Assembly: GCA_977017645.1 (NCBI GenBank)
Contig: OZ360220.1
Location: 191,766,001 to 191,830,000, forward strand
Direction: 5' to 3'
From: Torpedo marmorata
Taxonomy: Eukaryota
DNA length: 64,000 nt
The notes under the pieces: generated by a model
Seen by the model: the letters and a program-made list of their open reading frames with translations, nothing else
Told to the model about the DNA's origin: nothing
Databases searched by the model: none
Program-made: the position numbers and the translations under genes
Shown here: positions 4,178-31,100 of the stretch, in pieces
Numbering within the stretch: the stretch's first letter is position 1
How the letters are laid out: each line of letters begins with the position of its first letter

Positions 4178-7100
4178 TGATGAGCCCATCAACAACTCCA
4201 AAAAGACTAGAAGTTATACAAGAACTGAAAGGCTTTTATTAGCAAAATAATGGAGCTGCATTCGTGCTGATGATCTGTCCCGGACTGGGGGAGGAGCCGT
4301 GGCACAATGGCCTTTATTCAAGGGGGTTTGTGGGAGGAGCCGCCGGGACAGTCAGCAGGGCATGTCCAGACCTATCGCCTAGCCCACAATACATATACAG
4401 TGGTTTACCACATTCACCCCTCCTTTTAAAAGAGTCCAGCGGGGTGAAGTGTATAATAACAATAACATTAACATAAACATTAACATTAAAGATCAAGTCG
4501 ATCAGGAGATCGAGTCTGCCGTTGTGATCGGCGCAGTACTTGTGGTGATGGGGCAGGTGGCGGGGATACCTCCTGCCTGATCTGGGGTACTGCAGGTGGC
4601 GGAGCTACTTCCTGCCTGATCTGGGGTACTGCCACGTCTGGTGATCGAGAAAATGCTGATGAGTGTGGTGTCGTGCTGGAATTGAGTGGTGCCTCTTGTG
4701 TTTCCTCAATGGTAGGCAAGGGGGTAACCGTAACAAGGGGGTGTTCGAGGGCAGGTTCCAGTGCTCCTGCGGGAGCCAGGTCCCGGATGGAGACGGTGTC
4801 TTCCCGCCCATCAGGAAAAACCACGTAGGCGTACTGGGGGTTTGCATGTGATAATTGGACCCTCTCGACCATTGGGGCGTATTTGGGGCTCCTGACATGT
4901 TTGCGGAGCAGCACTGGCCCTGGGGACGTCAGCCATGCTGGTAGGGTAGTCCCGGTGGTCGACTTCCTAGGGAAAGAAAAGAGTCTCTAATGAGGTGTAG
5001 CATTGGTGGATGTACATAGCAGGGATCGGATAGAGTGGAGTGCCTCAGGAAGGACTTCTTGCCAGCGGGAGACTGGTAATCCCTTAGACCTGAGGGCTAA
5101 GAGTGTGGCCTTCCAGACCGTGGCATTCTCCCTTTCTACTTGTCCGTTACCCCGTGGATTATAGCTCGTGGTCCTGCTAGTGGCGATACCCTTGGCCAGC
5201 AGATATTGTCGCAGCTCGACACTCATAAATGAGGACCCCCGGTCGCTATGGATATAGCAGGGGAATCCAAACAACGTGAAGAGTTTGCGGAAAGCCTTTA
5301 TGACTGAGGTGGCCGAGGTATCGGGGCAGAGAATGGCGAAAGGGAACCGCGAGTACTCATCAATAACGTTGAGGAAGTACACGTTGCGGTCGGTGGAGGG
5401 GAGGGGACCCTTAAAGTCGACGCTGAGTCGCTCAAAAGGGCGGGTCGCTTTAATTAACTGTGCCCTGTCAGGGCGGTAGAAGTGCGGTTTGCACTCTGCG
5501 CAGACTTGGCAGCCACTGGTCATCGTCCTGACCTCTTCCAGGGAGTACGGTAGATTACGGGCTTTCACAAAGTGAAAAAGCCTGATGACTCCGGGGTGGC
5601 AGAGGTCACAGTGGAGGGCATATAACCGGTCGATCTGTGCGCTAGCACATGTCCCCCGGGATAGAGCGTCGGAGGGCTCATTTAGCTTCCCGGGCCGGTA
5701 CATAATATCATAGTTATAGGTGGAGAGTTCGTTTCTCCACCTCAGGATTTTATCATTTTTGATTTTACCCCGCTGTTGGTTGCTGAACATGAAGGCGACT
5801 GAGCGATGGTCAGTCAGCAGGGTAAACCTTTTCCCGGCGAGATAGTGCCTCCAGTGCCTGATAGCTTCAACTATGGCTTGGGCCTCTTTCTCCACCGCTG
5901 AGTGCCGAATTTCTGGGCCTTGAAGGGTACGGGAGAAGAACGCCACCGGTCTTCCCGCCTGGTTGAGGGTAGCAGCCAGTGCGAAGTCGGACGCGTCGCT
6001 CTCTACTTGAAAGGGAGTGGACTCGTCCACCGCATGCATTGCTGCTCTGGCAATGTCCCCTTTTATGAGGCTGAAAGCCTCACGTGCCTCCGTTGCAAGG
6101 GGAAAAGTGGTGGACTTGACTAGGGGGCGGGCCTTGTCTGCATAATTAGGGACCCATTGAGCATAGTACGAAAAGAAGCCCAAGCACCTTTTGAGGGCTT
6201 TGAGGGTGTGGGGAAGCGGTAGTTCCAACAGCATGCGGTCGGGGTCGGGGCCGATGACCCCGTTCTCCACAACACACCCCAGGATAGCGAGTCGGGTGGT
6301 TCCGAACACGCACTTGTCCTTGTTATAAGTAAGATTGAGCGCTTTGGCCGCCTGGAGGAACCTCCGAAGGTTGTTGTCGTGGTCCTGGTGGTCGTGACCG
6401 CAGATGGTTATATTATCTAAGTACGGGAAAGGGGCCTTTAAATTGCATTGGTCCACCATCCTGTCCATCTCGCTCTGGAAGACGGATACCCCATTTGTGA
6501 CCCCAAAGGGGACGCGCAGGAAATGATAGAGTCTGCCGTCCGCCTCGAAGGCGGTGTAAGCGCGGTCCTCCTGGTGAATGGGGAGCTGGTGGTAGGCAGA
6601 TTTGAGGTCTATGGTGGAGAAAAGCTTATATTGGGCTATCTGATTTACCATATCTGCAATGCGTGGTAGGGGGTACGCGTCAAGCTGCGTGAACCTATTG
6701 ATGGTCTGACTATAATCTACCACCATCCTGTTTTTGTTCCTGTTCTTGACGACAACCACCTGGGCCCTCCAGGGACTTGTGCTCGCCTCGATGATCCCTT
6801 CCCCAAGTAATCGCCTCACCTCTGACTTAATGAATGCCCTGTCCCCTGCGCTATATCTCCTGCTTTTGGTTGCCACAGGTTTACAATCAGGGGTCAGGTT
6901 GGCGAATAGCGATGGGGGCGAGATCTTGAGGGTGGATAGACCGCAAGTAGTATGGGGTGTGTTTTTAAGGAATTGGTGATTAACAACAGTAATCGGTGGG
7001 AGGGGCCCGTCATATTCCATAGTAACACTTTTGAGGTGACTCTGGAAGTCGAGTCCTAGTAGTACAGGTGCACACAGTCGGGGCATGACCATAGCGTGAA

Positions 7101-8572
7101 GTCCCGGTATTCCGTGCCCTGTACCACTAGCGTCGCTACACAACACCCCCGGATGTCTGTTGTGTGCGACCCGGAAGCCATGGCAACCCTCTGGCTTACC
7201 GGCTGTGTCGTGAGACCACATCGCTGTACCGTGTCAGGGTGGATGAAGCTTTCTGTGCTGCCTGTGTCGAACAGGCAGTTTGTCCTGTGTCCCTCGACCA
7301 GAATGTCCATCATTGACCTCGAATGTTGATGGGGTGCACTCTGGTCGAGTGTCACTGACGCCAAAGTTGGGTCGCTGTCGTGCTCCGACGTCGCGATGGA
7401 GTGCCTGTTGTCCTGGGATTGCGGCACCCTGTGTCGGCTCGCCGGCGTGGAACAAAATGGCCGCTCCCATGATTCGTACGTGTTGGCGGCGGGTAGATAA
7501 GATGGCGGCGCCGGAAGTGACGACACACAAGATGACCGCCCCCGAGTCTCGCACGCGGCGCTGCTCGAACCCGCTCGCGGCTTTGATCGGCAGACCTTAG
7601 CGAAGTGGCCTTTCTTTCCGCAGCTGGAGCAGGTCGCTTCGCGGGCCGGGCAACGTTTTCGGGGGTGCTTCTCAAGCCCGCAGAAATAGCATTTCTCGGG
7701 CTTGCGGCTGATGGCGGCAGTGGTCGATTCACTAGCATAGTGGGGGGTCGGTGGCATCCACGGAGCCTGCTGGAGATCGCGCGCTTGGATAGCGTCCGAG
7801 TTCTGTAGCGCGGCCTCCAGCGTGTCGGCCAGTTCGATCGCGGAATGGAAGGTGAGGTCAGCTTGTTCCAGCAGCCGCTGGCGCACATACACTGACCTGA
7901 TCCCTGTGACAAAAGCGTCTCTCCCTAGGAGCTCAGCGTGCTGTTCAGCCGTCAGTCCCCGGCAGTCGCACGCCCGCACGAGTGTTTGTATGGCCCGTAC
8001 GAACTCCGCGTTCGACTCCCCGGGCCGCTGCTGCCGCGTCGCTAGCCTGTGCCTCGCGTATACGGAATTCACAGGCCGTATGTACTGTCTTTTGAGGGTA
8101 TTCATCGCCTCCTCATAAGTCTGCAGATCGCGGATCATCGAGTAAACTCGTGGGCTTACCCTAGAGAGGAGGACCTTGCGTTTTTCGGCATCTTCTTGCA
8201 CTCTGATCTCCTCTAGGAACGATTCAAAGCAGACTAGCCAGAGTTCGAAGGCATTGCCGGCATCCGGTGCTTGTGGGTCGATGTCCAGTTTGTCTGGCCT
8301 CAAGATGTTCTCCATGTTTACACTTTTGCTAATAAAATTGATGTGCCCATCAATAACTCCAAAAGACTAGAAGTTATACAAGAACTGAAAGGCTTTTATT
8401 AGCAAAATAATGGAGCTGCATTCGTGCTGATGATCTGTCCCGGACTGGGGGAGGAGCCGTAGCACAATGGCCTTTATTCAAGGGGGTTTGTGGGAGGAGC
8501 CACCGGGACAGTCAGCAGGGCATGTCCAGACCTATCGCCTAGCCCACAATACATATACAGTGGTTTACCACA
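4178..8572 (-). mobile_element. Ty3/Gypsy LTR retrotransposon A (Mag-like gag), full-length, disrupted
   Basis: LTRs 4178-4412 and 8339-8572 (TG..CA, ~5 differences); TSD ATCTG (4173-4177, 8573-8577); PPT next to the 3' LTR; gag-PR-RT-RH-IN order. Clade label inferred from the CxxC..H..CPA..CxxCGKKGH..C knuckle. Confidence 0.95.
4486..8315 (-). pseudogene. Gypsy A gag-pol, frameshift near 7090 and premature stop at 4987-4989
   Basis: ORFs 7056-8315 (gag, PR FDTGS), 4987-7221 (RT YLDN, RH ESDASD, IN HHCC/DDE) and 4486-4914 (IN C-terminus) are collinear with the intact ORFs of B and D. Confidence 0.92.
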
Positions 8573-9709: not shown

Positions 9710-12700
9710 TGATATGCCTATCAATTAGCACTCAAGAGACTATGAGAGGGTTAACGAACCATAGGCTTTAATACACATAAAACAGACCAACAGTAGACCT
9801 GCAGATCTCGACCGGACTGTGGGCGGAGCAGTGGCACACAGGCCTTTATTCAGTTGAGAAAAGGGGAGGGATTACCTGGACACCCAAAGGAGGGGAGAGG
9901 AGTCGCCGGGACAGACAGCAGTACATACAATACACAAACAGTGGTTTACCACATTCACCCCTCCTTTTAAGAGTCCAGCGGGGTGAAGTGGCCACAATAC
10001 AATCGCTACAGGAATTCAAAATATTTACAGTCATAATCTACAGGTCAAGGCGATCCGGTGGTTTGGCTCGCCTTTGTGACCTGCGCAGTACCCTGGGTGC
10101 GGGTTGTGGTGCACGGGGTACCCTGGGTGCGGGTTGTGGTGCAGGGGAAGATGGCAAGGCCGTCGCCTCCTCCTGTGGTGCTGGGTGAGATGGCAGGATT
10201 GTGGGTTCCATCGAGGGTGCCTGGTCTGACGTTGTAGAAGAGGGAATAGGGAGAGGCCGCAGCGAGTGGTCTTGCCCGTCGAGAGGTTCCTCCGGCGCTC
10301 CCGCGGGCGCCAGGTCCCGAATTGAGACCGTGTCCTCTCTCCCATCCGGGAAGACCACGTAGGCGTACTGCGGGTTAGCGTGCGCTAACTGCACCCTCTG
10401 GACCGCGGGCTCATATTTGCTGCTCCGGAGGTGGTTGCGGAGCAGCACCGGCCCCGGAGACGTCAGCCAGGCAGGCAGGGCGGTTCCGGTGTTCGACCTC
10501 CTGGAGAAGGAGAAAAATCTCTCATGGGGCATTACATTGGTGGCTGTGCACAGTAAGGACCGTATCGAATGGAGGGCTTCGGGGAGAACATCTTGCCAGC
10601 GGGAAACCGGCAGTCCCCTGGACTTGAGAGCCAGGAGCGCCGCCTTCCAGACAGTGGCGTTCTCCCTTTCCACCTGTCCATTACCTCGGGGGTTGTATGC
10701 GGTGGTCCTACTAGTGGCGATGCCCCGGGTCAGCAGGAACTGGCGCAGCTCCTCACTCATAAAAGCTGATCCCCGGTCGCTATGAATGTAGTTCGGGAAG
10801 CCGAACAGCGTAAATACCTGGCGAAGAGCTTTTATGGTTGAGGCAGCCAAAGTGTCGGGGCAGGGAATGGCGAAGGGGAACCGCGAGTACTCGTCAATAA
10901 TGTTCAGAAAGTACACATTGCGGTTCGTGGAGGGAAGGGGCCCCTTGAAGTCAATGCTGAGACGTTCAAAGGGGCGAGTGGCTTTGATCAGCTGTGCCTT
11001 GTCGGGGCGGTAGAACTGGGGTTTGCACTCCGTGCAAACCCGGCAACTGCTGATCATTGTCCTGACCTCTTCCAGGGAGTATGGCAGGTTCTGTGACTTC
11101 ACGAAGTGAAAGAGCCTGGTAATTCCTGGGTGGCATAGGTCGTCATGTAGGGCGTGTAATCGGTCGACCTGCGCGCTGGCGCATGATCCCCGGGATAGAG
11201 CATCGGAGGGCTCATTGAGCTTCCCGGGCCGGTACATGATGTCATAATTGTAGGTGGAGAGCTCTATTCTCCACCTCATGATCTTGTCATTTTTGATCTT
11301 ACCCCGCTGCTGATTGTTGAACATGAATGCCACAGAGCGTTGATCTGTCAGCAGGGTAAAATGCTTACCGGCGAGATAGTGCCTCCAATGCCTGATGGCC
11401 TCCACTATGGCCTGGGCTTCCTTCTCCACCGCTGAGTGCCGAATTTCGGGGCCCTGAAGGGTTCGAGAGAAAAATGCCACCGGCCTTCCCGCCTGGTTGA
11501 GGGTAGCAGCCAGCGCGAAGTCCGATGCGTCACTCTCCACCTGGAAAGGTGTCTCCTCATCCACTGCGTGCATTGTTGCTCGCGCAATGTCCCCTTTTAT
11601 AAGGTCGAACGCCTTACGTGCCTCCGAAGCAAGGAGAAATGCAGTGGATTTCACAAGGGGTCGGGCCTTATCCGCGTAATTTGGGACCCATTGGGCATAA
11701 TAGGAAAAGAACCCGAGGCATCGTTTAAGGGCTCTGGGATTGGTGGGGAGCGGAAGTTCCAGCAGGGGCCGCATGCGTTCGGGGTCTGGTCCAATTACCC
11801 CGTTCTCGACCACATACCCCAAAATAGCGAGGCGAGTGGTACCAAACACGCATTTTTCTTTGTTATACGTGAGGTTTAGAGCTTTGGCCGCCTGCAGGAA
11901 CCTCCGGAGGTTGTTGTCATGGTCCTGACGATCATAACCACAGATGGTAATGTCATCAAGATATGGGAAAGTGGCTTTAAGTTTGTAATGGTCCACAATC
12001 CTGTCCATCTCCCGCTGAAAAACAGAAACACCATTAGTAACACCAAACGGAAGGCACAGGAATTGGAACAGCCTGCCATCTGCCTCGAACGCGGTGTATG
12101 AATGGTCCTCCCGACGGATAGGGAGCTGGTGATATGCCGATTTCAAGTCGATGGTGGAAAAGAGACGGTATTGGGCAATTTGGTTCACCATCTCCGCTAT
12201 CCGTGGTAGCGGGTATGCGTCTAGTAGCGTAAACCTGTTAATGGTTTGGCTGTAGTCCACCACCATTCTGCTCTTGACCCCTTTTACAACAACCACCTGG
12301 GCTCTCCAGGGACTATTACTCTTCTCTATAATCCCTTCCTGTAGCAATCTCTGTACCTCCATCTTGATAAATGCTCTGTCCTCGGCACTGTAACGCCTGC
12401 TTTTAGTTGCCACAGGCCTACAGTCCGGGGTCAGGTTCACAAACAACGACGGAGGCGAGATCTTAAGGGTGGAGAGACCACAGGTGGTTTCGGGCGTGCT
12501 ATCCAGGAACTGGTGGTTGGCTACAGTGATCGCGGGGAAAGGACCGTCATACTGCATTGTAACGCTCTGCCAATGGCTCTGAAAATCCAAACCCAGTAAC
12601 ACCGGCGCACACAAACGGTTCATGATAAACAAGGAAAATTGCCGGTACTCAGTCCCTTGTACCACAATGTTCGCCACACACGCCCCCCGGATGTCTGTTG

Positions 12701-14294
12701 TGTGGGACCCCGACTCCATGGCCACCCTCTGGCTTACCGGTACGATCGTTAGGCCACAGCGTTGAACAGTATCCGGGTGGATAAAGCTCTCAGTGCTGCC
12801 AGTGTCGAATAAACACGTTATCTTGTGTCCCTCGACCAGTATGTCCATCATGGATCTTGTCAGCTGGTGGGGAACGTTCTGGTCGAGGGTGATGGATGCC
12901 AAAGTTGGGGTGAAGTCGTCTTGGTCCGAGGTCTTTAAAAATGGCCGCTCCCGTGGGTTGCACGTGTCGCTGGAGGTCTCTGTACAAAATGGCGGCGCCG
13001 GAGGTGCAGGAAGTAACGAGGTACTGCTCTGAGATGGCGACGCCGGAAGTGCCAGCATGAAAGATGGCCGCTTCCACTCCTCACACGCGGTCGGTGCCAG
13101 AAGTGCCAGCATGAAAGATGGCCGCTTCCACTCCTCACACGCGGTCGGCGCCGGAAGTGCCAGTCTGCAAGATGGCCGCTCCCATCTCTCGCACGCGGCA
13201 CTACTCGGGCCCGCGCGCGGCTTGGAGCGGCAGGCCTTCGCGAAGTGGCCTTTCTTGCCGCAGTTGGAACAAGTCGCGTCGCAGGCCGGGCAGCGTTTCC
13301 TCGTATGCTTGTCGAGCCCGCAGAAGTAGCACTTCTCGGGCTCGCGATTAACAGCTGCGGCGGTGAGAGTAGCGTCGGTAGCGGTCGGGTCGCGGGTAGC
13401 GGCGGCAACAATCGGGTCGCGGGCCACAGCGGCCACAGTTGGATCGGTGGGGCTGGGGAACGGGACGATCCACGCATTAGCCTGGGGGTCCCGCGTCTGC
13501 ATCGCGTCGGAGTTCTGCAGCGCGGACTCCAGCGTGCGAGCCATCGCCACCGCAGAACGGAGATCGAGGTCAGAGTGCTCCAGCAGTCGCTGGCGTACGT
13601 ATACTGACCTCATCCCCATAATAAAGGTGTCCCTCTCCAGCAGATCAACAGGTTGTTCTTCAGTCAGCGCTTTACAGGCGCACGCTCGCACTAGGGACTG
13701 GATGTCCCTGACAAAGTCCACTATTGACTCCCCGGCCCGCTGTTTTCGTAACGATAGTCTATACCTCGCGTAGACCTCATTAACAGGGGTCACATAGATC
13801 TTTCTCAGTGCCTCCATCGCCTCGTCGTACGTCCCGCATTTCCAGATGGTTGAATACAACCGAGGGCTTACCCTAGATACTAGGACCTCTAGTTTCTGCT
13901 CGTCGCTTTCGGCCTTGACCTCCTTTGAGAACGATCGGAGGCAGCGTAGCCAGTGTTCGAATGCATGGCCAGCATCAGGAGCTAAAGGGTCGATGTCCAG
14001 TCGGTCCGGTCGGAGGGCACCTTCCATAATTTTTCTTATGTGTATTAAATTGATATGCCTATCAATTAGCACTCAAGAGACTATGAGAGGGTTAACGAAC
14101 CATAGGCTTTAATACACATAAAACAGACCAACAGTAGACCTGCAGATCTCGACCGGACTGTGGGCGGAGCAGTGGCACACAGGCCTTTATTCAGTTGAGA
14201 AAAGGGGAGGGATTACCTGGACACCCAAAGGAGGGGAGAGGAGTCGCCGGGACAGACAGCAGTACATACAATACACAAACAGTGGTTTACCACA
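9710..14294 (-). mobile_element. Ty3/Gypsy LTR retrotransposon B, intact
   Basis: 244-bp LTRs 9710-9953 and 14051-14294, no difference seen by eye; TSD GCCCA (9705-9709, 14295-14299). Confidence 0.97.
10038..14027 (-). CDS. Gypsy B single gag-pol polyprotein (~1329 aa)
   Basis: Open frame from ATG 14027: zinc knuckles, PR LFDTGS, RT YLDD, RH ESDASD, IN H..H..CxxC and D(SIDF)-D(HSDRG)-E(VERE). Confidence 0.93.
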   Translation of the reverse strand: MEGALRPDRLDIDPLAPDAGHAFEHWLRCLRSFSKEVKAESDEQKLEVLVSRVSPRLYSTIWKCGTYDEAMEALRKIYVTPVNEVYARYRLSLRKQRAGESIVDFVRDIQSLVRACACKALTEEQPVDLLERDTFIMGMRSVYVRQRLLEHSDLDLRSAVAMARTLESALQNSDAMQTRDPQANAWIVPFPSPTDPTVAAVARDPIVAAATRDPTATDATLTAAAVNREPEKCYFCGLDKHTRKRCPACDATCSNCGKKGHFAKACRSKPRAGPSSAACERWERPSCRLALPAPTACEEWKRPSFMLALLAPTACEEWKRPSFMLALPASPSQSSTSLLPAPPAPPFCTETSSDTCNPRERPFLKTSDQDDFTPTLASITLDQNVPHQLTRSMMDILVEGHKITCLFDTGSTESFIHPDTVQRCGLTIVPVSQRVAMESGSHTTDIRGACVANIVVQGTEYRQFSLFIMNRLCAPVLLGLDFQSHWQSVTMQYDGPFPAITVANHQFLDSTPETTCGLSTLKISPPSLFVNLTPDCRPVATKSRRYSAEDRAFIKMEVQRLLQEGIIEKSNSPWRAQVVVVKGVKSRMVVDYSQTINRFTLLDAYPLPRIAEMVNQIAQYRLFSTIDLKSAYHQLPIRREDHSYTAFEADGRLFQFLCLPFGVTNGVSVFQREMDRIVDHYKLKATFPYLDDITICGYDRQDHDNNLRRFLQAAKALNLTYNKEKCVFGTTRLAILGYVVENGVIGPDPERMRPLLELPLPTNPRALKRCLGFFSYYAQWVPNYADKARPLVKSTAFLLASEARKAFDLIKGDIARATMHAVDEETPFQVESDASDFALAATLNQAGRPVAFFSRTLQGPEIRHSAVEKEAQAIVEAIRHWRHYLAGKHFTLLTDQRSVAFMFNNQQRGKIKNDKIMRWRIELSTYNYDIMYRPGKLNEPSDALSRGSCASAQVDRLHALHDDLCHPGITRLFHFVKSQNLPYSLEEVRTMISSCRVCTECKPQFYRPDKAQLIKATRPFERLSIDFKGPLPSTNRNVYFLNIIDEYSRFPFAIPCPDTLAASTIKALRQVFTLFGFPNYIHSDRGSAFMSEELRQFLLTRGIATSRTTAYNPRGNGQVERENATVWKAALLALKSRGLPVSRWQDVLPEALHSIRSLLCTATNVMPHERFFSFSRRSNTGTALPAWLTSPGPVLLRNHLRSSKYEPAVQRVQLAHANPQYAYVVFPDGREDTVSIRDLAPAGAPEEPLDGQDHSLRPLPIPSSTTSDQAPSMEPTILPSHPAPQEEATALPSSPAPQPAPRVPRAPQPAPRVLRRSQRRAKPPDRLDL

Positions 14295-18784: not shown

Positions 18785-19036
18785 TGATATACCTATCAAT
18801 GACAGACGCGAGTCTAGAAGTGCAGGAATTAATAGGCTTTTATTACCAGAATCAAAGCCAGGGCTAAGCTACACCTTGACCTGGTGATCCCTGCTGGATT
18901 GTCCCGGAACTGGGGGAGGAGTTGCTGGCTCAAGGCCTTTATTCCATGTAAAGGGGGAGGAGTCACCGGGACAGACAGACAGGTCATGGTCATACCTGCC
19001 TCAGGCCACAATACATACTGAAAGTGGTTTACAACA
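18785..19036 (-). mobile_element. Solo LTR of the Gypsy D family
   Basis: Homologous along its length to 39657-39904; TG..CA ends; TSD TCCAC (18780-18784, 19037-19041). Confidence 0.93.
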
Positions 19037-19210: not shown

Positions 19211-22209
19211 TATTTCTACCTTTGCTACATAAAAGACACTGTTTGACCTGCTGAGTTTCTCCAGCATTTGTGTTTTTTACTTCAATCACGGTGTCTACAG
19301 ATTTTCGTGTTTTACTTATCACAGTGGACGTGAGTGCAACTGGGCGATATTCATTGAGGCAGCTCACTCTGCTCTTCTTGGGCACCGGAATGATTGATGC
19401 CCTTTTGAAGCAGGTGGGAACCTCCAACTGCAGCAGTGAGAGATTGAAAATATCCGTGAATACTCCAGCTAGTTGGTTGGCACAGATTTTCAGCACCCTG
19501 CCAGGTACGCCATCAGGGCCTGATGCCTTGCGAGGGTTTACCCTTTTTGAAAGATGTTCTGACATTTGCCTCAGGGACAAATATCAGAGGGTTGTCAGCT
19601 TCTGCAGGGATTCTCATTGATACCATGGAGTTCTCCTTTTCATAGCGAGCATAAAAGGTGTTCAGCTCATCAGGTAGTGAAGCATCACAGCTACTTATGG
19701 TGTTCGGCATTGCCTTGTAGAATGTAATGGTCTGTAATTCCTGTATCTGACTCTGTCTCTAGCTTCCCTTGGAATTGCCTCTTTGCTGATGAGATGGCCT
19801 TCCGTCGGTCGTACCTGAACATCCTGTAGAGATCTGGATCACTGGACTTAAACGCCATCAATCTTGCCCTCAGCAGGTTGCAAAACTTTTGATTCATCCA
19901 CGGCTTCTGGTTGGGATACTCACGGTATGTACACGTGGGCATACTCTCATCCACGCAGGTTTTGATGAAGTCAGTGACCGCCGTGGCACATTCATTCAGG
20001 TTTGAGGATGAGTCCTTGAATATGGTCCAGTCCACTGATTCAAAGCAGCCCTGCAGGCGCTCCTCTGCCTCCCTCGACCATACTTTCACCGTCTTCACCC
20101 CTGGTGCTGTAGTCGTCAGTCTTTGATGGTGTGCCAGGAGAGGAACTACAGCCAGGTGATTAGACTTGCCGAAGTGCGGTCGTGGGATGGCTCGGTAGGC
20201 GTTCTTCATGGTGATGTAGCAGTGGTCAAGTGTGTTTCTCAGGTAATATGTTGGTGATAGTTTGTCAGCGACTTCTTCAGGCTGGCCTGGTTGAAGTCCC
20301 TTACAATGATCAGAAAAGCATCAGGGTGCCTCTCATGACTGCTGATTATAGTGCTCAGCCCCTCCAGTGCCAGACTGATGTTAACGTGGGGCGGAATGTA
20401 CACAGCAACCAGGATGATGGCGGAGAATTCCCTCGGGAGATAGAATGGACGACACTTGATCGTCAAATGTTCCAGGTCAGGGGAGCAGGAGTGGCACATC
20501 ACCGTCACATTTGTGAACCACGATGAATTGATAATGCAGCAAACGCCGCCGCGTCTGCCTTTACCTGACGCCAGTTGATGGTGAAGCCCATGTGTGCTGT
20601 GTCCGGAATGCTCTCATTCAGCCATGTCTCTGTGAAGCACATCACACAGAAATCCCTGATGTCCCTCTGTAATCTGGCTCTGAGTTCATCCAGTTTATTT
20701 TCCAAGATTGTACGTTGGCCAGGAGGATGGTAGGGAGTGGGGGCCTCAGAACCCAGCATCTTAGTTTAACCAGTAACCCCCCCTCTGCATCCGCACGATC
20801 GGGTCTTCTTTAAATAGTCCATGCGTCGGCTATTCGAGTCACCCGCAGTCTTTAAATGGCCGGTGGTTCAGCTGTTTGCATCTCCCACAGTATTTAAATA
20901 GCCCATGCATCGGCTTTTCTGATTGCCCGCAGTCTTTGAATGGCCCGTGCGTCGGTTGCTCGTGCACTGGCTGTTTGAATCTCCCCCGGTCTGCTGGAGT
21001 ATGCCGCTCCCGACAATTGCAAGATCTACAGACGTTCTTAGTACAGCGTTACTTACTGGTAAGTTGGTTTCTGTGGCTGTGGGTTTGATTTGTAATAGTT
21101 CTGAACAGGAATATATGATGATTTCTATTGGAGTGGCACACTGTAAGGCGCCATCTTTTTTTAATTATTCCTGTTCTTGCACTGTAAAATATATCCTATT
21201 ATCGAGATTTTAAATAAACATCCCACTGGATCTGCTTTCACTGCCTTTTCAGCAGTGCGAATTGGAAACAACGTCTCATCCTCACTGATTATCAACACAG
21301 GCGCACCCCAAGGATGCGTGCTTAGCTCACTGCTCTACTCGTTATACATCCATGACTGTGTGGCCAGGCACAATTCCAATGCCATCTACAAGTCTGCCGA
21401 TGATACCACAGTTTTCGGCAGAATCACAAACGGCAATGAGGAAGCGTGCAGGAGGGAGATAGATCAGCTCGTTGAATGGTGTAACGACAACAACCTTGCG
21501 CTCAACGTCAGCAAAACCAAGGAGATGATTGTGGACTTCAGGAGGAAGTCAGGGGAACACGACCCAGTCCTCATCGAGGGCTCAGTAGTGGAGAGGGTCA
21601 AGAACTTCAAATTCCTGGGTGTCAACATCTCCGAGGATCTGTCCTGGAGCCTCCACGTTGATGCAATCACAAAGAAGGCTCGCCAGCGGCTATACTTTGT
21701 GAGGTGTCTGAGGAGATTCGGTATGTCACCGAAGACTCTTGTAAACTTCTACAGGTGTACCGTGGAGAGCATTCTGGCTGGTTGCATCACTGCCTGGTAT
21801 GAAGGCGCCAACTCTCAGGACAAGAATAAACTCCAGAGGGTTGTTAACTCGGCCTGTGACATCACAGGCACCAGACTTCACTCCATTGAGGACATCTACA
21901 CGAGATGGTGTCTTAAAAAAGCAGCCTCTGTCCTCAAAGACCCCCACCACACAGGCCATGCCCTCTTCACTCTGCTACCACTGGGAAAAAGGTACAGGAG
22001 CCTAAAGTCGAGCAGACAACGGCACAAGGACAGATTCTTCCCCGCTGCCATCAGATTCCTGAATAATTAATGAACCAAAGACGCTGACTTACTTTTCGTG
22101 TAAGAGCCGTAGGCTCGTTAACTTACCGTTGTTGCGGCGCTCCGATGTCTCGTCGGGCCTTGGAGCGCTTGCGTTGTTCTGTGGGCCGTCGTCGGCCCGT
22201 TCTTTGATA

Positions 22210-22261
22210 TGCGCATGCGCGGGAGTGCCGACGGGCGCATGCGCAGTATGGAGTGACGTCA
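22210..22261 (+). promoter_or_regulatory. Two NRF1-type palindromes and a CRE in the BEL LTR (repeated in the 3' LTR)
   Basis: TGCGCATGCGC 22210-22220, GCGCATGCGCA 22235-22245, TGACGTCA 22254-22261, in a CpG-rich segment. Confidence 0.55.
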
Positions 22262-23126
22262 TTGTGCGCGTGGGAGGCTGGGAGTTGTAGTATGCGCGGG
22301 GTAGGATGCGCAGAGCCATTAGAGAGAGAGAGAGAAGGAAAGGAAAAGATGTATGGAGGGTGAGTCTGGTCTCCACATCTTTATTGACCGTTTTATATAG
22401 TTTTATAATCGTTTTATAATGTTTTTATAACTTCAACATCATCTACAGTGTTTCATATCGTTTTGGAATTGTTTAAGGAATAATTTAAAGGAACTCATCA
22501 TACATTGTTTACAAGAACTGTTTATATTAAAGTCATTGAAGATTACTGCAAGTCATGTGTGAAAATAAAGGTTTTGAACATATTGGACTTTGTTAGTAAA
22601 TTAATTAAAACGCGTCAAAAGCAAGGACCACACTTAGCCTCCAGGTGACTATTGGTGGAGCGAAGTCACCGTTACTTATAGTCAATAAAGTGCTGGCTGT
22701 TTGGAACAGAAGTTTGAAGGAAAGAAGATAGAAAAAACTCTCTGTGCTTTGGACTGATATAAAATGGTGGCCATTTTGAAGATGCCTCGAGTTGGGGGCA
22801 GTTTGTAATCTACATCCATCTGCCATGAGTAACAGCCAGAGAGGGATTTAAAGCTTCAAATCTTATAATAAAGTGTCCTATAAATACGTTGGAGAAACCA
22901 TTTTTGGAAAATCAGTGATATTAGTGACGGATGTTGTGGTTGAAACTCGTTTGTGGATTGCAGCACATTACAGTCATTTGAAGTGGTAGGCATAAGTCTG
23001 TGGACTCCTTCTGTGTATCTTTAGCAAGTAAGAACACAGATTGGAATTGCTGCCGCTGGTCCATTGGGGACTGTTGTTTGGCTAGTGTTGTGTATGCTTG
23101 AAGGAAAGAGGAACAAGACGAGTAAA

Positions 23127-26100
23127 ATGGCCGCAGCAGCCACTGATACAGCAGCTACTGATATATCAGCAGCTGACGCAGCAACCGCTGATGTTGCTGT
23201 TGAGGACCAACGTATTGAAGACATGAAGGTTGCGGATATTAAAGAAGAATTGAAGCGACTGAAAAGGGACATAAGTGGAAATAAAAAGGTTCTTATCGAA
23301 AGATTGAAGCTGGCAAAGGATGAAGAGGCAGCTTCATTAGTGGAACAAGAAGATAACTTGGAAATGGCTGAAATTGTGTCAACAAATGATGAACAATTTG
23401 AATTGGATAAAGAGGTAAGTATGAAGACAACATATGAACTGCAGGACGAAATACAAGCAAGTGACAGTGTCTCAAATGCTGAAAGCAGGAGAAGCAAAAG
23501 AAGTTCTGGTTCGAGCTCCAGAGTTTCTCGTACTTCAAGTTCTGCGTCGTCACGTACAAAGATTGATGTTAAATTGGCCGCTCTTCTTGCACAACAAAAA
23601 ACGCTTAAGGATAAATATATTTTGGAAGAAGAGGAGGAGCAGCTAAGACAAAAGGAGGAGCAACTAAAGGAGCAGCTAAGACAAAAGGAGGAGCAGCTAA
23701 GACAAGAGAAGGAGCAGCTAAGGAAGAGAAAAGAACTGCAGGAGCTGGAAGCAAACATTGCTATTGCCAAGGCAGAAAAGAAAGCAATAGAAGGCTCAAT
23801 GGTATCTGGTGCTAGCAGTAAATTATCTAAATTGTCTGATAATAAAAGGTCATATTTAAAAAAGGAGTCACAGGAAAAGAAACCAACCAAAAGGATAGAT
23901 ATTTTAGAACCAAGGATACAAAACTTACATATACAAGGACAAACCTTTCAAGAGCATATTGGTATCGAGTCATATGTACCAATGATAACATCTGAAAGCA
24001 AAGCTGCGGATTGGGTTCGGTCGAACGAAGTAAATTCTTTGTTATATGAGTCAAGCATCAGAAATGTGGAAGAAACTATACCAGTAAGGTATCCAGATAC
24101 ATTGCATGCAACAAGAAACGGTGAACAGAGCAATGTATTGTCGTCCAAGGAAATACAAAATGAAATTGCTGCATCATTGTTTCAGTTACAGTCTCTCTCT
24201 TCTTTACCCAAGAAAGAGATACAAACTTTTGATGGTCATCCACTTCAATATCAATCATTTATGAGATCTTTCAAACGCAATATTGAAGATAAATGCCAAG
24301 ATCGTGATGAATGTCTTTATTATTTGGAAATGTTTACAAAGGGACATCCAAAAGAACTGGTAAAAAGTTGTAATCAAATGTCTTCAGGAAGAGGATTAGA
24401 CAAAGCTAAGGATTTATTGGAACAATATTTTGGCAACAAGCATCGAATTGCTTTAGCTTATATGGATAAAGCTCTTAAATGGACATCAATAAAACAAAAT
24501 GATGTAAAGGCTTTGCAAGAATATACTTTGTTTTTAAGAGGATGTTGTAATGCTATGGAAGAAATCGATGGTATTCGTGAGCTTGATGTGCATAGTAATA
24601 TGCGAATCATTTTAGAAAAATTACCTTACAAGGTATGGGATAGATGGAGAAATTTGGCTTGTGATTTACAAGTAAATTATGGTCGAAAAACTACCTTAAA
24701 GGATTTGGTAAATTTTCTTGAACGACGGGTGTACGTTGAAACGGATCCACTATATGGAAATACCAGAGATAATTCAATGGGCAAAGATGTAAGAAAGTCT
24801 AATTCACAATCTAGTCCGAAAGTGAAAAGGAGTACTTTTGCTACTAATGTGCAAGTTATAAGTAAAGAAAATGACAAAGTAAATAAGGAAAAGGAAAGTT
24901 TGCCTAATGAAAGGAGTTGTTTGTTCTGTAAAGGTGGACATGCTTTGGAAATGTGTTTACGATTGGAAAAGAAGGAACATAAGGAAAGGATCGCTTTCTT
25001 AAAGGAAAATGGAATATGTTTTAGCTGTCTGTGTAAAGGGCACATCAGTAAAAACTGTGAGAAGCGAATTAATTGTAACATATGCAATTTGAAACATCCT
25101 AGAATTTTGCATATCCATAACAGAAACAAGGAATTGGAAAAGGAGCAAACAGAAACAAAGGAAACAACAGAAAATAATGTTATAACCTCGGTTCAGACAA
25201 GTGGTCTTACTGGGGCCGGGGTGAATAACTGCAAACTTTCAATAGTGCCTGTACAAGTCAAGGCCAAGAAAGGGGATGCAATAGTAAAAACATATGCATT
25301 TCTAGACCCAGGTAGCACTGCATCTTTTTGTACGGAAGGACTAATGAATAAACTTAATATTCAAGGAAGAAAATCAAGAATTATGTTAAAAACCATGGGA
25401 CAAGAAAAGGTTGTTGAAACTAATATTGTTTCAGGCTTAGAGGTTGCTGGATTAGATGACAAAAGGTTTTGTGATCTTCCAAGTGTATATACTCAGAAGA
25501 CTATGCCTGTGAACGAAGGAAATATTCCTCGTCAAAGTGATATCCATCATTTAGCTTATCTGTGGAAGGTTTATTTACCTGAAATTAATTCTGAGATAGA
25601 AATGCTGATTGGTTCAGATGTGCCAAAGGTTTTGGTACCAAAAGAAGTAATAGAAAGTAAAAGGAATGGACCTTACGCTATCAGAACCATACTTGGTTGG
25701 GCAATCAATGGACCAATGGAAAGAAATAATGATATTGATCAGGCACAGGTAGCGATAAATGTTAATAAAATTTCAGTTGAGAAAGTTGAAGAGTTAAGAG
25801 AAGAGCAAAAAACCGTGAATAAGAAAATTACTTATGAAGAAAAGAAAACAGATCAATGTAAAAATAAATCAGTGGTATTTAAAACAACATTGAAGAAATT
25901 AATTTCGTCAGAAATGGATGAAAGTGAAGTATTAGAAGATGTTGCAAATAATACTGTTGATCATTCATGTGTAATTGAATCAAATACAGGAATAAAACAA
26001 GTGACTGAAAACAAATCTGAATGTAGATTTTGTAGTTCAGAGATTACAATTGACAAAGCTAATGAAGAATTATTGCAATGTGATGTAAAAATGGAGAACA

Positions 26101-26852
26101 CAGAAAATTGTGCTGATGGAATAAAGAATAATGATTCAGAGAACAAAATGTTGAAAGGAGAATTGGAAATATTAAATAAGCAAGAAAACAGTAAACAGAA
26201 AGATTTAATTGTAAGTAAAACTCGCAAAGTCAGAAAGCGGAAGAAAAGAATAACTGCTGAAGAAATGAATACAGTTATTGAGGAAAGAGATTCAGCATTA
26301 TCAAAATGTAAAAGGTTGGAGGAAGAGATTAATGTTTTGAAAGAGAACAAGTTATTGGTTAATAACACAAAACAGTTGACTTTAAAAACCAATCAAGAAT
26401 GTAAATTGAATGTTCAACAATTAACAATGCAGAAAGAATGTGATATTGCATTGCAGATATGTAACAAACAAGATGAAGAAATTAAAAAATTTCAAGTTTG
26501 TCGCGACAGGATTGACAATGGAAATATCAATGTACCATATGATATTTTGACTTCAGATCAAATTATTAATTTCTCGGAAGGAGCTGAGACTGAATTGAAA
26601 GTTGCAAAATTGGATTTAGAATTGCAGGAAAGAGCCATAGAAACCAGAGTGGTTAAACAGACCTGTTTAAAATCGAAAGAATCAGATAAATATTCAAATT
26701 CTAATTCTAAGAGTTTAAATTCTTCACATGAGAAGTGGAATACTGAAGAAAGGAATAAAGTGAAACGACGTGCTGAAGAAGTGCCTTGTGTTAAATTCAA
26801 AAGAAAAACTGTATCTATTTTATCTGAGGAGGATTTGAGGTTTACTGGTTAA
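23127..26852 (+). CDS. Chimeric SAP-Gag-protease-coiled-coil (MIPOL1-like) polyprotein, ~1241 aa
   Basis: ATG in aaaATGG context at 23127; SAP-like IEDMKVADIKEELKRL..SGNKKVLIERL; BEL gag LPKKEIQTFDG; three Cys/His knuckles; PR AFLDPGS; then RITAEEM..EERDSALSKCKRLEEE. Confidence 0.85.
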   Translation: MAAAATDTAATDISAADAATADVAVEDQRIEDMKVADIKEELKRLKRDISGNKKVLIERLKLAKDEEAASLVEQEDNLEMAEIVSTNDEQFELDKEVSMKTTYELQDEIQASDSVSNAESRRSKRSSGSSSRVSRTSSSASSRTKIDVKLAALLAQQKTLKDKYILEEEEEQLRQKEEQLKEQLRQKEEQLRQEKEQLRKRKELQELEANIAIAKAEKKAIEGSMVSGASSKLSKLSDNKRSYLKKESQEKKPTKRIDILEPRIQNLHIQGQTFQEHIGIESYVPMITSESKAADWVRSNEVNSLLYESSIRNVEETIPVRYPDTLHATRNGEQSNVLSSKEIQNEIAASLFQLQSLSSLPKKEIQTFDGHPLQYQSFMRSFKRNIEDKCQDRDECLYYLEMFTKGHPKELVKSCNQMSSGRGLDKAKDLLEQYFGNKHRIALAYMDKALKWTSIKQNDVKALQEYTLFLRGCCNAMEEIDGIRELDVHSNMRIILEKLPYKVWDRWRNLACDLQVNYGRKTTLKDLVNFLERRVYVETDPLYGNTRDNSMGKDVRKSNSQSSPKVKRSTFATNVQVISKENDKVNKEKESLPNERSCLFCKGGHALEMCLRLEKKEHKERIAFLKENGICFSCLCKGHISKNCEKRINCNICNLKHPRILHIHNRNKELEKEQTETKETTENNVITSVQTSGLTGAGVNNCKLSIVPVQVKAKKGDAIVKTYAFLDPGSTASFCTEGLMNKLNIQGRKSRIMLKTMGQEKVVETNIVSGLEVAGLDDKRFCDLPSVYTQKTMPVNEGNIPRQSDIHHLAYLWKVYLPEINSEIEMLIGSDVPKVLVPKEVIESKRNGPYAIRTILGWAINGPMERNNDIDQAQVAINVNKISVEKVEELREEQKTVNKKITYEEKKTDQCKNKSVVFKTTLKKLISSEMDESEVLEDVANNTVDHSCVIESNTGIKQVTENKSECRFCSSEITIDKANEELLQCDVKMENTENCADGIKNNDSENKMLKGELEILNKQENSKQKDLIVSKTRKVRKRKKRITAEEMNTVIEERDSALSKCKRLEEEINVLKENKLLVNNTKQLTLKTNQECKLNVQQLTMQKECDIALQICNKQDEEIKKFQVCRDRIDNGNINVPYDILTSDQIINFSEGAETELKVAKLDLELQERAIETRVVKQTCLKSKESDKYSNSNSKSLNSSHEKWNTEERNKVKRRAEEVPCVKFKRKTVSILSEEDLRFTG

Positions 26853-26924
26853 CGTTTTGACTCGGATTGTGAAGATGGAAGAACTTTAAAGAGACATTGT
26901 GATTGTTATGGATGGTTCAACTTC

Positions 26925-27072
26925 AAGAAATTCCTGGTTACTTGGAAAAGATTATTGAGACTTTTCAAGACAAAGAGGACTTGTGCGTCAAGTGCGAATT
27001 AAAGCTAAGACTGGTTTTCTAAACAGACCTATTAACCAGGTCTGTCTTTTGTTGGAGACAGAGGAACTTTGA
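26925..27072 (+). pseudogene. Frameshifted remnant of the BEL integrase C-terminus
   Basis: Reads across shifts as RNSWLLGK/IIETFQD/KRGLVRQVRIKAKTGFLNRPINQVCLLLE, typical of the BEL pol end. Confidence 0.75.
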
Positions 27073-28123
27073 TAAATATAAACTGACTTTATTTGTTGTT
27101 GTATATTTCACAGGTTACAGACTTTTGTTGAATCAGAGTTATGGTAAACTCTAGATTTATGAAGAAGGAAGAAAGAAGATTTGTATTGTTTTGAATGTTA
27201 TGGTTATTATTATTTATAGTGTAATTATTATTCAAGACATTACGTCTAATTATAATAATTAGGGGCCGGTGTAAGAGCCGTAGGCTCGTTAACTTACCGT
27301 TGTTGCGGCGCTCCGATGTCTCGTCGGGCCTTGGAGCGCTTGCGTTGTTCTGTGGGCCGTCGTCGGCCCGTTCTTTGATATGCGCATGCGCGGGAGTGCC
27401 GACGGGCGCATGCGCAGTATGGAGTGACGTCATTGTGCGCGTGGGAGGCTGGGAGTTGTAGTATGCGCGGGGTAGGATGCGCAGAGCCATTAGAGAGAGA
27501 GAGAGAAGGAAAGGAAAAGATGTATGGAGGGTGAGTCTGGTCTCCACATCTTTATTGACCGTTTTATATCGTTTTATAATCGTTTTATAATGTTTTTATA
27601 ACTTCAACATCATCTACAGTGTTTCATATCGTTTTGGAATTGTTTAAGGAATAATTTAAAGGAACTCATCATACATTGTTTACAAGAACTGTTTATATTA
27701 AAGTCATTGAAGATTACTGCAAGTCATGTGTGAAAATAAAGGTTTTGAACATATTGGACTTTGTTAGTAAATTAATTAAAACGCGTCAAAAGCAAGGACC
27801 ACACTTAGCCTCCAGGTGACTATTGGTGGAGCGAAGTCACCGTTACTTATACTTTTCGTGCACTAATATTTATATTTTTTATAGTAATGTTGTAAGATGG
27901 TTATAATATGAATGTTTGCACTATGATGCTGCCGCAAAACACCGAATTTCATGACTTGTTCATGACAATAAATTCTGATTCTGATTCTTGTGTGTGATCA
28001 GCCTCTGACATGAAAGGTTTCTCATCTCACACTTGTCAATTTGGCAATTTACCTTGAGTCTATGTCCTCTGATCATCATTAAAGCTCTCTGATTCCATGT
28101 GATACTTGAGACAAGGACAGGCC

Positions 28124-31100
28124 TGATACGCCCATCAATAACTCCAAAAGACTGGAAGTTACACAAGAACTGAAAGGCTTTTATTAGCTACAGAATGGAT
28201 CTACATTCGTGCTGGTGATCTGTCCCGGACTGGGGAAGGAGTTGTGGCACAATGGCCTTAATTCAAGGGGGGTAGTGGGAGGAGCCACCGGGACAGTCAG
28301 CAGGACATGTCCAAACCTATCACCAGCCCACAATACATATACAGTGGTTTGCCACATTCACCCCTCCTTTTAAAAGAGTCCAGCGGGGTGAAGTGAACAC
28401 TACAACACATCTAAAATATATTACAGTCATAGATCAAGTCGATCAGACGGTCGAGTCTGACGTCGTGATCGGCGCAGTACTTGTGATGGGACAGGCAGCG
28501 GAGCCACCTCCTGCCTGGTTTGGGGTACCGGAACGTCGGGTGACGGCGAAAGTGCTGGTGAATGTGGTGTCGTGGTGGGATCGAATGGTGCATCTTGTGT
28601 TTGCACGGGGGTAATCGTAACAAGGGGGTGTTCGAGGGCGGGTTCCGGTGCTCCTGCGGGCGCCAGGTCCCGGATGGAGACGGTGTCTTCCCGCCCATCA
28701 GGGAAGACCACGTAGGCGTACTGGGGGTTGGCATGGGCTAACTGGACCCTCTCGACCATTGGGGCGTATTTACTGCTCCTGATATGTTGGCGGAGCAGCA
28801 CTGGCCCTGGGGACGTCAGCCATGCTGGTAGGGTAGTCCCGGTGGTCGACTTCCTGGGGAAAGAAAAGAGTCTCTCATGAGGAGTCGCGTTGGTGGACGT
28901 ACATAGCAGGGACCGGGAATGGAGGGCCTCGGGAAGGACTTCCTGCCAGCGGGAGACTGGTAATCCTTTAGACCTGAGTGCTAAGAGAGTGGCCTTCCAG
29001 ACCGTGGCGTTCTCTCTTTCCACCTGTCCGTTACTCCGAGGATTGTAGCTTGTGGTCCTGCTAGTGGCGATACCCTTTGCCAGCAGATATTGTCGCAGCT
29101 CGTTGCTCATAAATGCGGACCCCCGGTCACTATGGATGTAGCAGGGGAAACCGAACAGGGTGAAGAGTTTGCGAAAAGCTCTTATGACAGAGGTGGCCGA
29201 GGTATCGGGGCAGGGAATGGCGAAAGGGAACCGCGAGTACTCATCAATAACGTTGAGGAAGTACAAGTTGCGGTCGGTGGAGGGGAGGGGACCCTTGAAG
29301 TCGACGCTGAGTCGCTCGAAAGGGCGGGTCGCCTTAACTAGCTGTGCCCTGTCAGAGCGGTAGAAATGCGGTTTGCACTCCGCGCAGACCTGGCAGCTGC
29401 TGGTCATCACCCTGACCTCTTCTAGGGAGTACGGTAGATTACGTGCCTTCACAAAATGAAACAGCCTGGTAACTCCGGGGTGGCAGAGGTCACAGTGGAG
29501 GGCATATAACCGGTCGATCTGTGCGCTAGCGCATGTCCCCCGGGATAGAGCATCGGAGGGCTCATTGAGCTTCCCGGGCCAGTACATAATATCGTAGTTG
29601 TCGGTGGAGAGTTCGATTCTCCACCTCAGGATTTTGTCGTTTTTGATTTTACCCCGCTGCTGGTTGTTGAACATAAATGCGACTGAGCGCTGGTCAGTCA
29701 GCAGGGTAAACCTTTTGCCGGCAAGATAGTGCCTCCAGTGCCTGATAGCTTCCACTATGGCTTGGGCCTCTTTCTCCACCGCTGAGTGCCGAATTTCTGG
29801 GCCTTGAAGGGTACGGGAGAAGAACGCCACCGGTCTTCCTGCCTGGTTGAGGGTAGCAGCCAGTGCGAAGTCGGACGCGTCACTCTCTACTTGGAAGGGA
29901 GTGGACTCGTCCACCGCGTGCATTGCTGCTCTAGCAATGTCCCCTTTTATGAGGTCGAAAGCCTCACGTGCCTCCGCTGCAAGGGGAAAAGTGGTGGACT
30001 TGACTAGGGGGCGGGCCTTGTCTGCATAATTAGGGACCCATTGGGCGTAGTATGAAAAGAAGCCCAAGCACCTTTTGAGGGCTTTGAGGATGTGGGGAAG
30101 CGGTAGTTCCAACAGGGGGCGCATGCGGTCGGGGCCGATGACCCCGTTCTCCACGACACACCCCAGGATAGCGAGTCGGGTGGTCCCGAACACGCACTTA
30201 TCCTTGTTGTAGGTGAGATTAAGTGCTTTGGCTGCCTGGAGGAACTTCCGGAGGTTGTTGTCGTGGTCCTGGCGATCGTGACCACAGATAGTGATATTGT
30301 CCAAGTACGGGAAGGTGGCTTTTAGATTGTACTGGTCCACCATCCTGTCCATCTCCCTCTGGAAGACGGATACCCCATTTGTGACCCCAAAGGGGACGCG
30401 CAGGAAATGATAGAGCCTGCCGTCCGCCTCGAAGGCGGTGTAAGTGCGGTCTTCTCGGCGGATGGGGAGCTGGTGGTAGGCAGACTTGAGGTCTATGGTG
30501 GAGAAGAGCTTATATTGTGCTATCTGGTTAACCATATCCGCAATGCGTGGCAGGGGGTACGCGTCAAGCTGCGTGAACCTATTGATAGTGTGGCTGTAAT
30601 CCACCACCATCCTATTTTTGTTCCCGTTCTTCACGACGACCACCTGGGCCCTCCATGGACGTGCTCGGTTCAATGATCCCCTCCCCGAGTAATCGCCTCA
30701 CCTCTGACTTGATGAATGCCCTGTCCCCTGCGCTATATCTCCTGCTTTTGGTCGCCACAGGTTTACAGTCAGAGGTCAGGTTGGCGAATAGCGACGGGGG
30801 CGGGATCTTGCGGGTGGATAGACCGCAGGTAGTGTGGGGTGTGTTTTTGAGGAACTGGTGATTACCGACGGTAATCGATGGGAGGGGCCCGTCATATTTC
30901 ATGGTAACGCTCTGGAGGTGGCTCTGGAAATCGAGGCCCAGTAGTACAGGTGCACACAGTCGGGGCATGACCAATAGCGTGAAGTCCCGGTATTCCGTGC
31001 CCTGTACTACTATCGTCGCCACACAACCCGCCCGGATGTCTGTTGTGTGTGACCCGGAAGCCATGGCAACCCTTTGGCTTACCGGCAGTGTCACGAGGCC

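Follow-up and report, generated by a model that had tools for sequence, protein, structure and literature searches.

Young Ty3/Gypsy elements without a chromodomain in Torpedo marmorata probably use a capped 5' fragment of their own RNA as primer for reverse transcription

Four Ty3/Gypsy Elements and Their Surroundings

The window analyzed here, a stretch of 64,000 nucleotides of Torpedo marmorata DNA (assembly GCA_977017645.1, contig OZ360220.1, positions 191,766,001 to 191,830,000 of the forward strand), harbors four full-length Ty3/Gypsy elements, A to D, all on the minus strand and each bounded by a 5-bp target-site duplication (TSD) (Table 1). The four display the hallmarks of the group, namely TG..CA LTRs, a TSD, a PPT and the Gypsy domain order of protease (PR), reverse transcriptase (RT), RNase H (RH) and integrase (IN), and the best solved relative of their RT is that of Ty3. 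The RNase H domain was identified by domain search, its cleavage activity being a prediction. Family D looks like a very recent burst: of 640 candidates 40 were scored, and every one of these is 100% identical over the 334 nt compared, with copies on several chromosomes.

Table 1. Positions in the window of the four elements, their parts and a related solo LTR
Feature	Position	Strand	Details
Element A, full-length	4178-8572	-	LTR 234 nt; 5-bp TSD
Element A, LTRs	8339-8572 and 4178-4412	-	about 97.5% identical
Element A, gag-pol damage	frameshift near 7056-7233; stop near 4987	-	
Element A, primer-binding site (PBS)	8324-8337	-	1 nt beyond the 5' LTR
Element A, LTR segment complementary to PBS	8394-8407	-	contains AATAAA; putative 3' end of the self-primer
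Element A, second stem	8345-8393	-	GCCT 8393-8390 with GGGC 8348-8345
Element A, putative promoter	8446-8478	-	TATA-like AATAAAGG 8478-8471; initiator-like A 8446, 32 nt apart
Element B, full-length	9710-14294	-	identical 244-nt LTRs; 5-bp TSD
Element B, gag-pol	ATG 14027 to 10038	-	single frame, PR-RT-RH-IN; two CCHC-like motifs by eye; chromodomain absent
Element B, PBS	14036-14049	-	
Element B, complementary LTR segment	14108-14121	-	LTR nt 174-187
Element B, TATA-like sequence and initiator-like A	14159-14191	-	TATA-like 14191-14184; A at 14159 = LTR nt 136
Element C, full-length	28124-32565	-	LTRs 233 nt, 5/233 nt differ; 5-bp TSD
Element C, frameshift	near 30612-30697	-	
Element C, PBS	32318-32331	-	
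Element C, complementary LTR segment	32388-32401	-	
Element C, TATA-like sequence and initiator-like A	32440-32472	-	A at 32440
Element D, full-length	39657-44373	-	identical 248-nt LTRs; 5-bp TSD
Element D, gag-pol	ATG 44093 to 40005	-	single frame
Element D, PBS	44113-44124	-	
Element D, complementary LTR segment	44179-44190	-	
Element D, TATA-like sequence and initiator-like A	44250-44282	-	A at 44250, 60 nt upstream of the segment
Solo LTR, D-like subfamily	18785-19036	-	5-bp TSD

Several other repeats share the window. A Bel/Pao-like LTR element with SAP and DUF1759 domains and LTRs that are 99.8% identical lies within a LINE at 22099-27851 (plus strand); its leader begins without TGG, 10 nt starting 1 nt into the leader are complementary to LTR nt 280-289, and donor- and acceptor-like splice sites can be seen by eye in the LTR. 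The element is possibly a further example of self-priming. At 48500-53252 lie two LINE-like RT regions that have diverged (63% identity over 1.9 kb) and point in opposite directions, and a GC-rich repeat with a period of about 51 nt and a 130-nt imperfect palindrome are found at 56807-57285 and 62170-62300, respectively.

Each Leader Pairs With Its Own LTR

The 5' LTRs of A to D end in ...ATCA, followed by a single A and then by the exact reverse complement of a segment of the same LTR, forming a potential duplex of 14 nt in A, B and C and of 12 nt in D. The LTR segment ends 53-57 nt before the end of the LTR, is directly followed by GCC and contains a poly(A) hexamer (AATAAA in A, C and D; ATTAAA in B). 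TGG, the start of a tRNA-type PBS, follows none of the four LTRs. In dinucleotide shuffles the observed run was reached in 0 of 5000 trials for each LTR, the best shuffled runs being 11-12 nt, and every leader pairs over 12-14 nt with its own LTR vs at most 10 nt with the other three. The exact complementarity at all four pairs of sites, the missing tRNA PBS, the GCC after each segment and the hexamer within it had all been noted in an initial annotation made from the sequence without database searches, and each of these observations holds. That annotation overlooked a second AATAAA in each LTR, some 80-100 nt further upstream, which resembles a TATA box.

The Pairing Extends Across a Widespread Clade

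We extended the comparison to 29 elements: the four of the window, nine copies from about 800 kb of neighboring and distant genome stretches, and 16 from a metagenome whose hosts are not recorded. The metagenome provided 80 loci, 24 of them with a repeat pair and 16 with a usable LTR-leader pair; the eight repeat pairs that were dropped comprised assembly overlaps, a simple repeat, a second copy in reverse and an unclear LTR end. In 25 of the 29, the leader pairs with the element's own LTR over 12 nt or more from leader nt 2 onward (longest run 19 nt), and the four that fall short are three single mismatches and one disrupted LTR. Complementarity is not lost in most members, a loss that the initial annotation had held would speak against its reading. 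Metagenome relatives with only about 55% protein identity also pair with their own LTRs, the exact duplex ranging from 11 to 19 nt among relatives, while leaders matched against the LTRs of other families pair over only 4-10 nt. For 24 of the 25 pairing elements the last bases of the segment are AAA and the LTR continues with ACC or GCC, the exception being a relative (L139) that has neither the A spacer nor the RCC.

The closest named proteins are from rays and a catshark (77-83% identity over RT-IN), and the named matches among those listed come from sharks, rays, a sea anemone, a tunicate and Trichuris. This genome contains about 68,000 gag candidates of the clade. The contigs of one run that were examined carry related copies only; no relatives were found in viral contigs, and comparison with a protein atlas returned no clade name. 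In a quick RT-RH tree, from which 17 short rows and four near-duplicates were left out and which includes no named Tf1/sushi reference, 60 of 67 rows form one long-stemmed group (SH-aLRT 93) that unites these elements with shark/ray, sea-anemone and Trichuris proteins.

None of 28 aligned proteins has a Chromo or SH3_Tf2-1 match (E 0.01), and the Chromo accession is absent from the precomputed domains of 120 listed protein matches and of a further match listing. A Chromo search of the genome gave 15 matches, and none of the six examined adjoins an RT; the ten SH3_Tf2-1 matches examined in the genome all belong to Gmr1-type elements. The description of the lineage as non-chromovirus thus stands as regards the chromodomain, and it is carried by that absence and not by the tree, given the references the tree includes.

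Gmr1-type elements, in which the integrase precedes the RT, are common in this genome (L097:3815-6906, minus strand; L100:3-1859, plus strand; L253-L262), one of them with a SCAN-like gag domain. A retrovirus-like element with Gag p30, a second RNase H, an MLV-type integrase C-terminus and two long open frames was also encountered (L185:1434-6647, minus strand).

PBS Alleles Follow LTR Alleles in Family B

Family B is abundant enough for the duplex to be followed copy by copy. With duplex position 7 left open, the family pattern has 2,954 matches in the genome, and among 100 listed ones counted by hand the LTR/PBS alleles are 60 G/C, 24 A/T, 14 C/G and two discordant; the PBS allele thus follows the LTR allele in 98 of these 100 copies. 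Genome-wide searches for the two discordant position-7 classes returned 21 and 24 copies. In two B copies (L238 and L236) the 5' and 3' LTRs carry different common position-7 alleles, which suggests conversion or recombination between subfamilies.

At position 8, four of seven rare LTR variants are accompanied by the matching change in the PBS. Three of these four compensated copies can be read from end to end, and they carry the variant in both LTRs and have three different TSDs. The four differ from one another by 4-8 of 700 nt and by 11-15 from a relative in which the LTR variant is combined with the old PBS, distances that make a chance second change at the partner base unlikely. LTR variants at position 5 (11 copies) and position 9 (six copies) are all uncompensated. 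Twelve uncompensated single variants were checked: ten are confined to the 5' LTR, as would be expected of damage after insertion, one is present in both LTRs together with the old PBS and would represent the predicted intermediate, and one is undecided.

An alignment of 15 leaders shows the same behavior on a larger scale, with 39 two-sided changes and not a single one-sided or G-U change in the primer duplex vs 20 one-sided changes of the G-U type and no two-sided change in the adjacent GCC stem. Related sequences inflate the shuffle control for covariation, and our reading relies on this contrast between duplex and stem. A duplex that changes only by two-sided Watson-Crick swaps fits a PBS that is copied from its primer; the duplex would be kept by templating, and the GCC stem by selection on RNA structure. 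Hence, what the initial annotation called compensatory changes is borne out insofar as pairing persists across differing sequences, but most likely reflects RT copying the primer into the PBS rather than two selected mutations.

A single host RNA could not follow three LTR alleles and a rare variant as the PBS does. Priming by tRNA was rejected mainly on this allele tracking, as well as on the lack of TGG after any LTR. ARAGORN reported one tRNA-like gene in about 864 kb of the genome searched, and an Rfam search of the window found nothing.

A Predicted Stacked Fold of the Leader

In minimum free energy (MFE) folds of the four leaders the duplex stacks on the GCC stem across a 7-nt bulge in which the LTR end lies (z -2.5 to -3.9), and RNAalifold returns the same 18 pairs. 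A stem of at least 3 bp directly after the segment is found in 24 of the 25 pairing elements and starts with RCC:GGY in 23; several metagenome relatives form it as a local hairpin. Duplex and stem resemble two of the duplexes that make up the three-duplex "pretzel" of Tf1 in the passages that describe it in PMC10085805; the third, which would join the leader past the PBS to LTR sequence downstream of the primer, is absent from our folds, which are of a kind that cannot show pseudoknots.

A further motif in U3 is the inverted complement of sequence just past the putative start (in A, window 8503-8510 vs 8435-8443; C and D are similar) and is present in 8 of 12 LTRs. More speculatively, it might pair the 5' and 3' ends of the RNA and help the first strand transfer.

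Putative Start Site and Over-Long PBS Copies

In 11 of 12 LTRs the TATA-like AATAAAGG, which is the context of the second AATAAA, is separated by exactly 32 nt from the A of a downstream initiator-like CAGT, the usual spacing between TATA box and initiator being about 30 nt. The distance from the initiator to the paired segment varies from 38 to 62 nt over the 12 LTRs (38 nt in B), and none of the 12 has a TATA-like sequence 22-34 nt ahead of the segment.

Another view of the 5' end comes from 61 family B copies in which the PBS is extended as an inverted copy of the LTR, 60 of which were analyzed. In 43 of the 60 the inverted copy reaches LTR nt 1 or enters the PPT; copying that far needs DNA or the 3' LTR as template, so that fold-back of DNA certainly occurs. 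The remaining 17 stop within the LTR, at nt ~42, 79, 103, 120, 123, 133, 134 (three copies), 135 (three copies), 136, 142, 143, 146 and 149, the stop at nt 142 being nearer 154 when measured against that copy's own LTR. Eight of the 17 fall 0-3 nt past the initiator A, whose place had been determined before the stop positions were examined, and five others lie upstream of the initiator. For the 14 stops within LTR nt 120-166 the concentration of eight at the initiator has P = 5e-6, or 2e-4 if three copies that share a re-entry site are counted once. The eight peak copies re-enter the element at six different partners, three of these copies at one 9-nt microhomology in gag, and four of the eight have clean matching 5-bp TSDs. 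The peak was not replicated in family D, where eight over-long PBS copies gave internal stops at 158, 151, 130 and 118 vs a predicted 124, none of the four being within 3 nt of the prediction.

The simplest reading of the B peak is run-off at the 5' end of the RNA, which would make the primer about 52 nt long with its last 14 nt pairing. A pause site on a DNA template could mimic such run-off, and plus-strand copying of the uncut 5' end of a second RNA would also give rise to the peak, which is better at mapping the start site than at proving the primer. Since 8 of 17 stops coincide with an initiator located beforehand, the primer is likely a capped 5' fragment of about 50 nt and not the first 11 nt as in Tf1. 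The parallel with Tf1 drawn in the initial annotation would not hold at this point: the paired segment is probably not the first stretch of the RNA, the start site in B lying some 38 nt further upstream. What is new here are the 61 over-long copies of family B, which likely point to a primer longer than that of Tf1.

The over-long copies also include other rearrangements. The U3 end is inverted or doubled through fold-back at the PBS in 43 of the 60 analyzed B copies (L279-L338), one copy (L311) ends in an inverted LTR, and at least three (L282, L307, L325) show loop inversions between segment and PBS. The duplex thus makes family B prone to rearranged insertions.

Proposed Mechanism and Alternative Explanations

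That these elements prime themselves is very likely, and the initial annotation's proposal of self-priming in a lineage that lacks a chromodomain has good support from the clade-wide pairing, the allele tracking and the absence of the chromodomain in 28 of 28 proteins. Granted self-priming, a long primer whose paired part is internal to the RNA is a quite likely form for it to take. As a full account, young Ty3/Gypsy elements without a chromodomain probably take as primer a capped fragment from the 5' end of their own RNA, and not a tRNA, as follows. Transcription would start at the initiator 32 nt after the TATA-like sequence and 38-62 nt upstream of the paired segment, which would then fold onto the PBS and stack on the RCC:GGY stem. 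A cut at the AAA|RCC junction, which the element's own RNase H would probably make if Tf1 is a guide, would free the 3' end of a fragment of about 50 nt (B) to about 70 nt (D), and this end would prime minus-strand DNA through U5. Plus-strand synthesis would copy the 3' end of the primer into the PBS, so that a mutation in the LTR is passed on automatically. Normally only the paired part would enter the insert; occasionally copying would run to the cap and the strand re-enter elsewhere, leaving an over-long PBS as a fossil. Where the segment holds a hexamer the duplex could in addition hide the poly(A) signal of the 5' LTR, although the clade does not need that.

The closest competitor is priming exactly as in Tf1, with an RNA that starts at the first base of the segment and a primer consisting of its first 12-14 nt, i.e., the length of the PBS. 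All of the pairing and covariation results fit this equally well, and run-off at such an RNA end would explain the sharp and constant PBS length; the failure of the family D stops to peak at the initiator is also on its side. Our own account offers no explanation of how copying normally ends 12-14 nt into a longer primer. We nevertheless regard it as unlikely in view of the 12 LTRs with nothing TATA-like 22-34 nt before the segment, the fixed TATA-initiator spacing further upstream in 11 of them and the eight B stops 38 nt upstream of the segment. A primer supplied in trans, as a short LTR-derived RNA from other copies, from solo LTRs or from small-RNA processing rather than from the same or a co-packaged genome, has thousands of LTR copies as possible sources and could account for the cross-allele combinations (17 G/G and 10 C/C copies). 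A shared pool should, however, scramble the three alleles, in contrast to the agreement in 98 of the 100 listed copies, and recombination or conversion explains the cross-allele copies as well, the two C/C copies that were checked differing between their own LTRs; we consider a trans primer highly improbable.

We give equally little credence to the duplex being only an RNA switch that hides the poly(A) signal of the 5' LTR, or an aid to packaging, with a host RNA or another route doing the priming. Such a switch would be specific to the 5' LTR, which alone is followed by the PBS, and AATAAA or ATTAAA is indeed found within the paired segment in 18 of the 25 elements, the 11 of this genome all being among them. 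Yet the hexamer is missing from the segment in the other seven, in two of which it lies downstream; the duplex begins exactly one base beyond the LTR end and, unlike the neighboring stem, tolerates no G-U; one host RNA could not track the several alleles; and the fold-back fossils reveal DNA strands ending in PBS-type sequence. With seven of 25 segments lacking a hexamer, masking cannot be the core function, and of the initial annotation's proposal that the duplex masks the signal there is left a possible side benefit in this fish lineage, i.e., a plausible role that would be secondary at most. Poly(A) cleavage generally occurs 10-30 nt after the hexamer, in which case the first strand transfer would have to rely on a short overlap of about 10-30 nt.

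Implications and Comparison With Known Systems

A second and very successful self-priming Gypsy lineage bears on how often independence from tRNA arose, and searches for PBSs based on tRNAs would miss this clade. An internal primer, if true, means that RT/RNase H must cut a long RNA at a helix junction and that plus-strand copying is limited somehow without a tRNA modification. The copy-level data show a route by which the duplex can drift freely in sequence, and over-long PBS copies offer a DNA-only means of mapping start sites in self-priming elements. We advance only tentatively, as somewhat doubtful, the broadest version of the proposal: a large animal-wide Gypsy clade with its own form of self-priming, of separate evolutionary origin from that of Tf1/sushi, in which a capped fragment of 50-70 nt is cut at AAA|RCC, the PBS is rewritten in each cycle, the duplex doubles as a 5' LTR poly(A) switch in sharks and rays, and miscopied insertions record both start site and primer.

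To our knowledge, self-priming has been worked out by experiment only in chromoviruses of fission yeast. In the passages drawn on here, the primer of Tf1 is the first 11 bases of its own RNA, released by RNase H (PMC7175516), Tf1 cDNA ends retain the PBS as single-stranded DNA (PMC11042837), the full-length RNA of Tf2 begins at the start of R (PMC5341516) and Tj1 is proposed to self-prime like Tf1 (PMC4600332); all seven fission-yeast elements described in PMC10085805 have a chromodomain. The relevant part of PMC6317226 gives self-priming as reported for Tf1/sushi and as predicted for Tcn1 and the TAR (Houba/Osr-1) Ty1/copia elements, on the criterion of at least 10 nt complementary to the 5' LTR and starting 0-5 nt after it, and gives tRNA primers for plant non-chromovirus Gypsy elements. 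One view, as put in PMC3601003, is that self-priming is older than tRNA priming. The portions covered of PMC3601003, PMC6238403, PMC6934838, PMC8556966 (supplement search), PMC12471100 and PMC4558846 do not describe self-priming for any animal Gypsy clade outside the chromoviruses, and our literature search found no paper on self-priming for this clade; a prior description is possible in Levin 1996, Lin and Levin 1997/1998, Esnault and Levin 2015, Simmen and Bird 2000, Butler 2001 or Repbase.

Like Tf1/sushi, the elements described here have a PBS complementary to their own 5' LTR and no tRNA PBS. Unlike Tf1, which uses its first 11 bases, they likely pair through an internal segment 38-62 nt downstream of the start site. 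This segment differs further from that of the Tf1 group in its closeness to the LTR end (35-65 nt) and its frequent overlap with a poly(A) hexamer; none of the 28 proteins has a chromodomain, in contrast to all seven fission-yeast elements. We do not file them under Tf1/sushi because the chromodomain searches were negative and the position of the primer is probably different. Cigr-1 of Ciona is of similar size, with an LTR of about 245 nt and one ORF, and the tunicate match mentioned above is among the protein relatives. Mag (A/B/C), CsRN1, Cigr-1, Tor2 and MolGy1-16 are likewise compact animal Gypsy elements without a chromodomain, a comparison made from their descriptions in part of PMC6238403 and not from reference sequences; Saci2/lennie and Gmr1 share these traits. 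The Tcn1 chromoviruses and TAR copia elements, for which self-priming is predicted by the same criterion of complementarity in the part of PMC6317226 cited, belong to other lineages and hosts. Saci2/lennie elements have 4-bp TSDs and tRNA-assigned PBSs in the passages cited from PMC12471100 and PMC4558846, in contrast to the 5-bp TSDs and the lack of a tRNA PBS here. Finally, whereas Gmr1 has its integrase before the RT, the integrase follows the RT in these elements, and Gmr1-like RTs fall outside this clade in the tree, the Gmr1-type elements both of this genome and from metagenome loci being separate from it.
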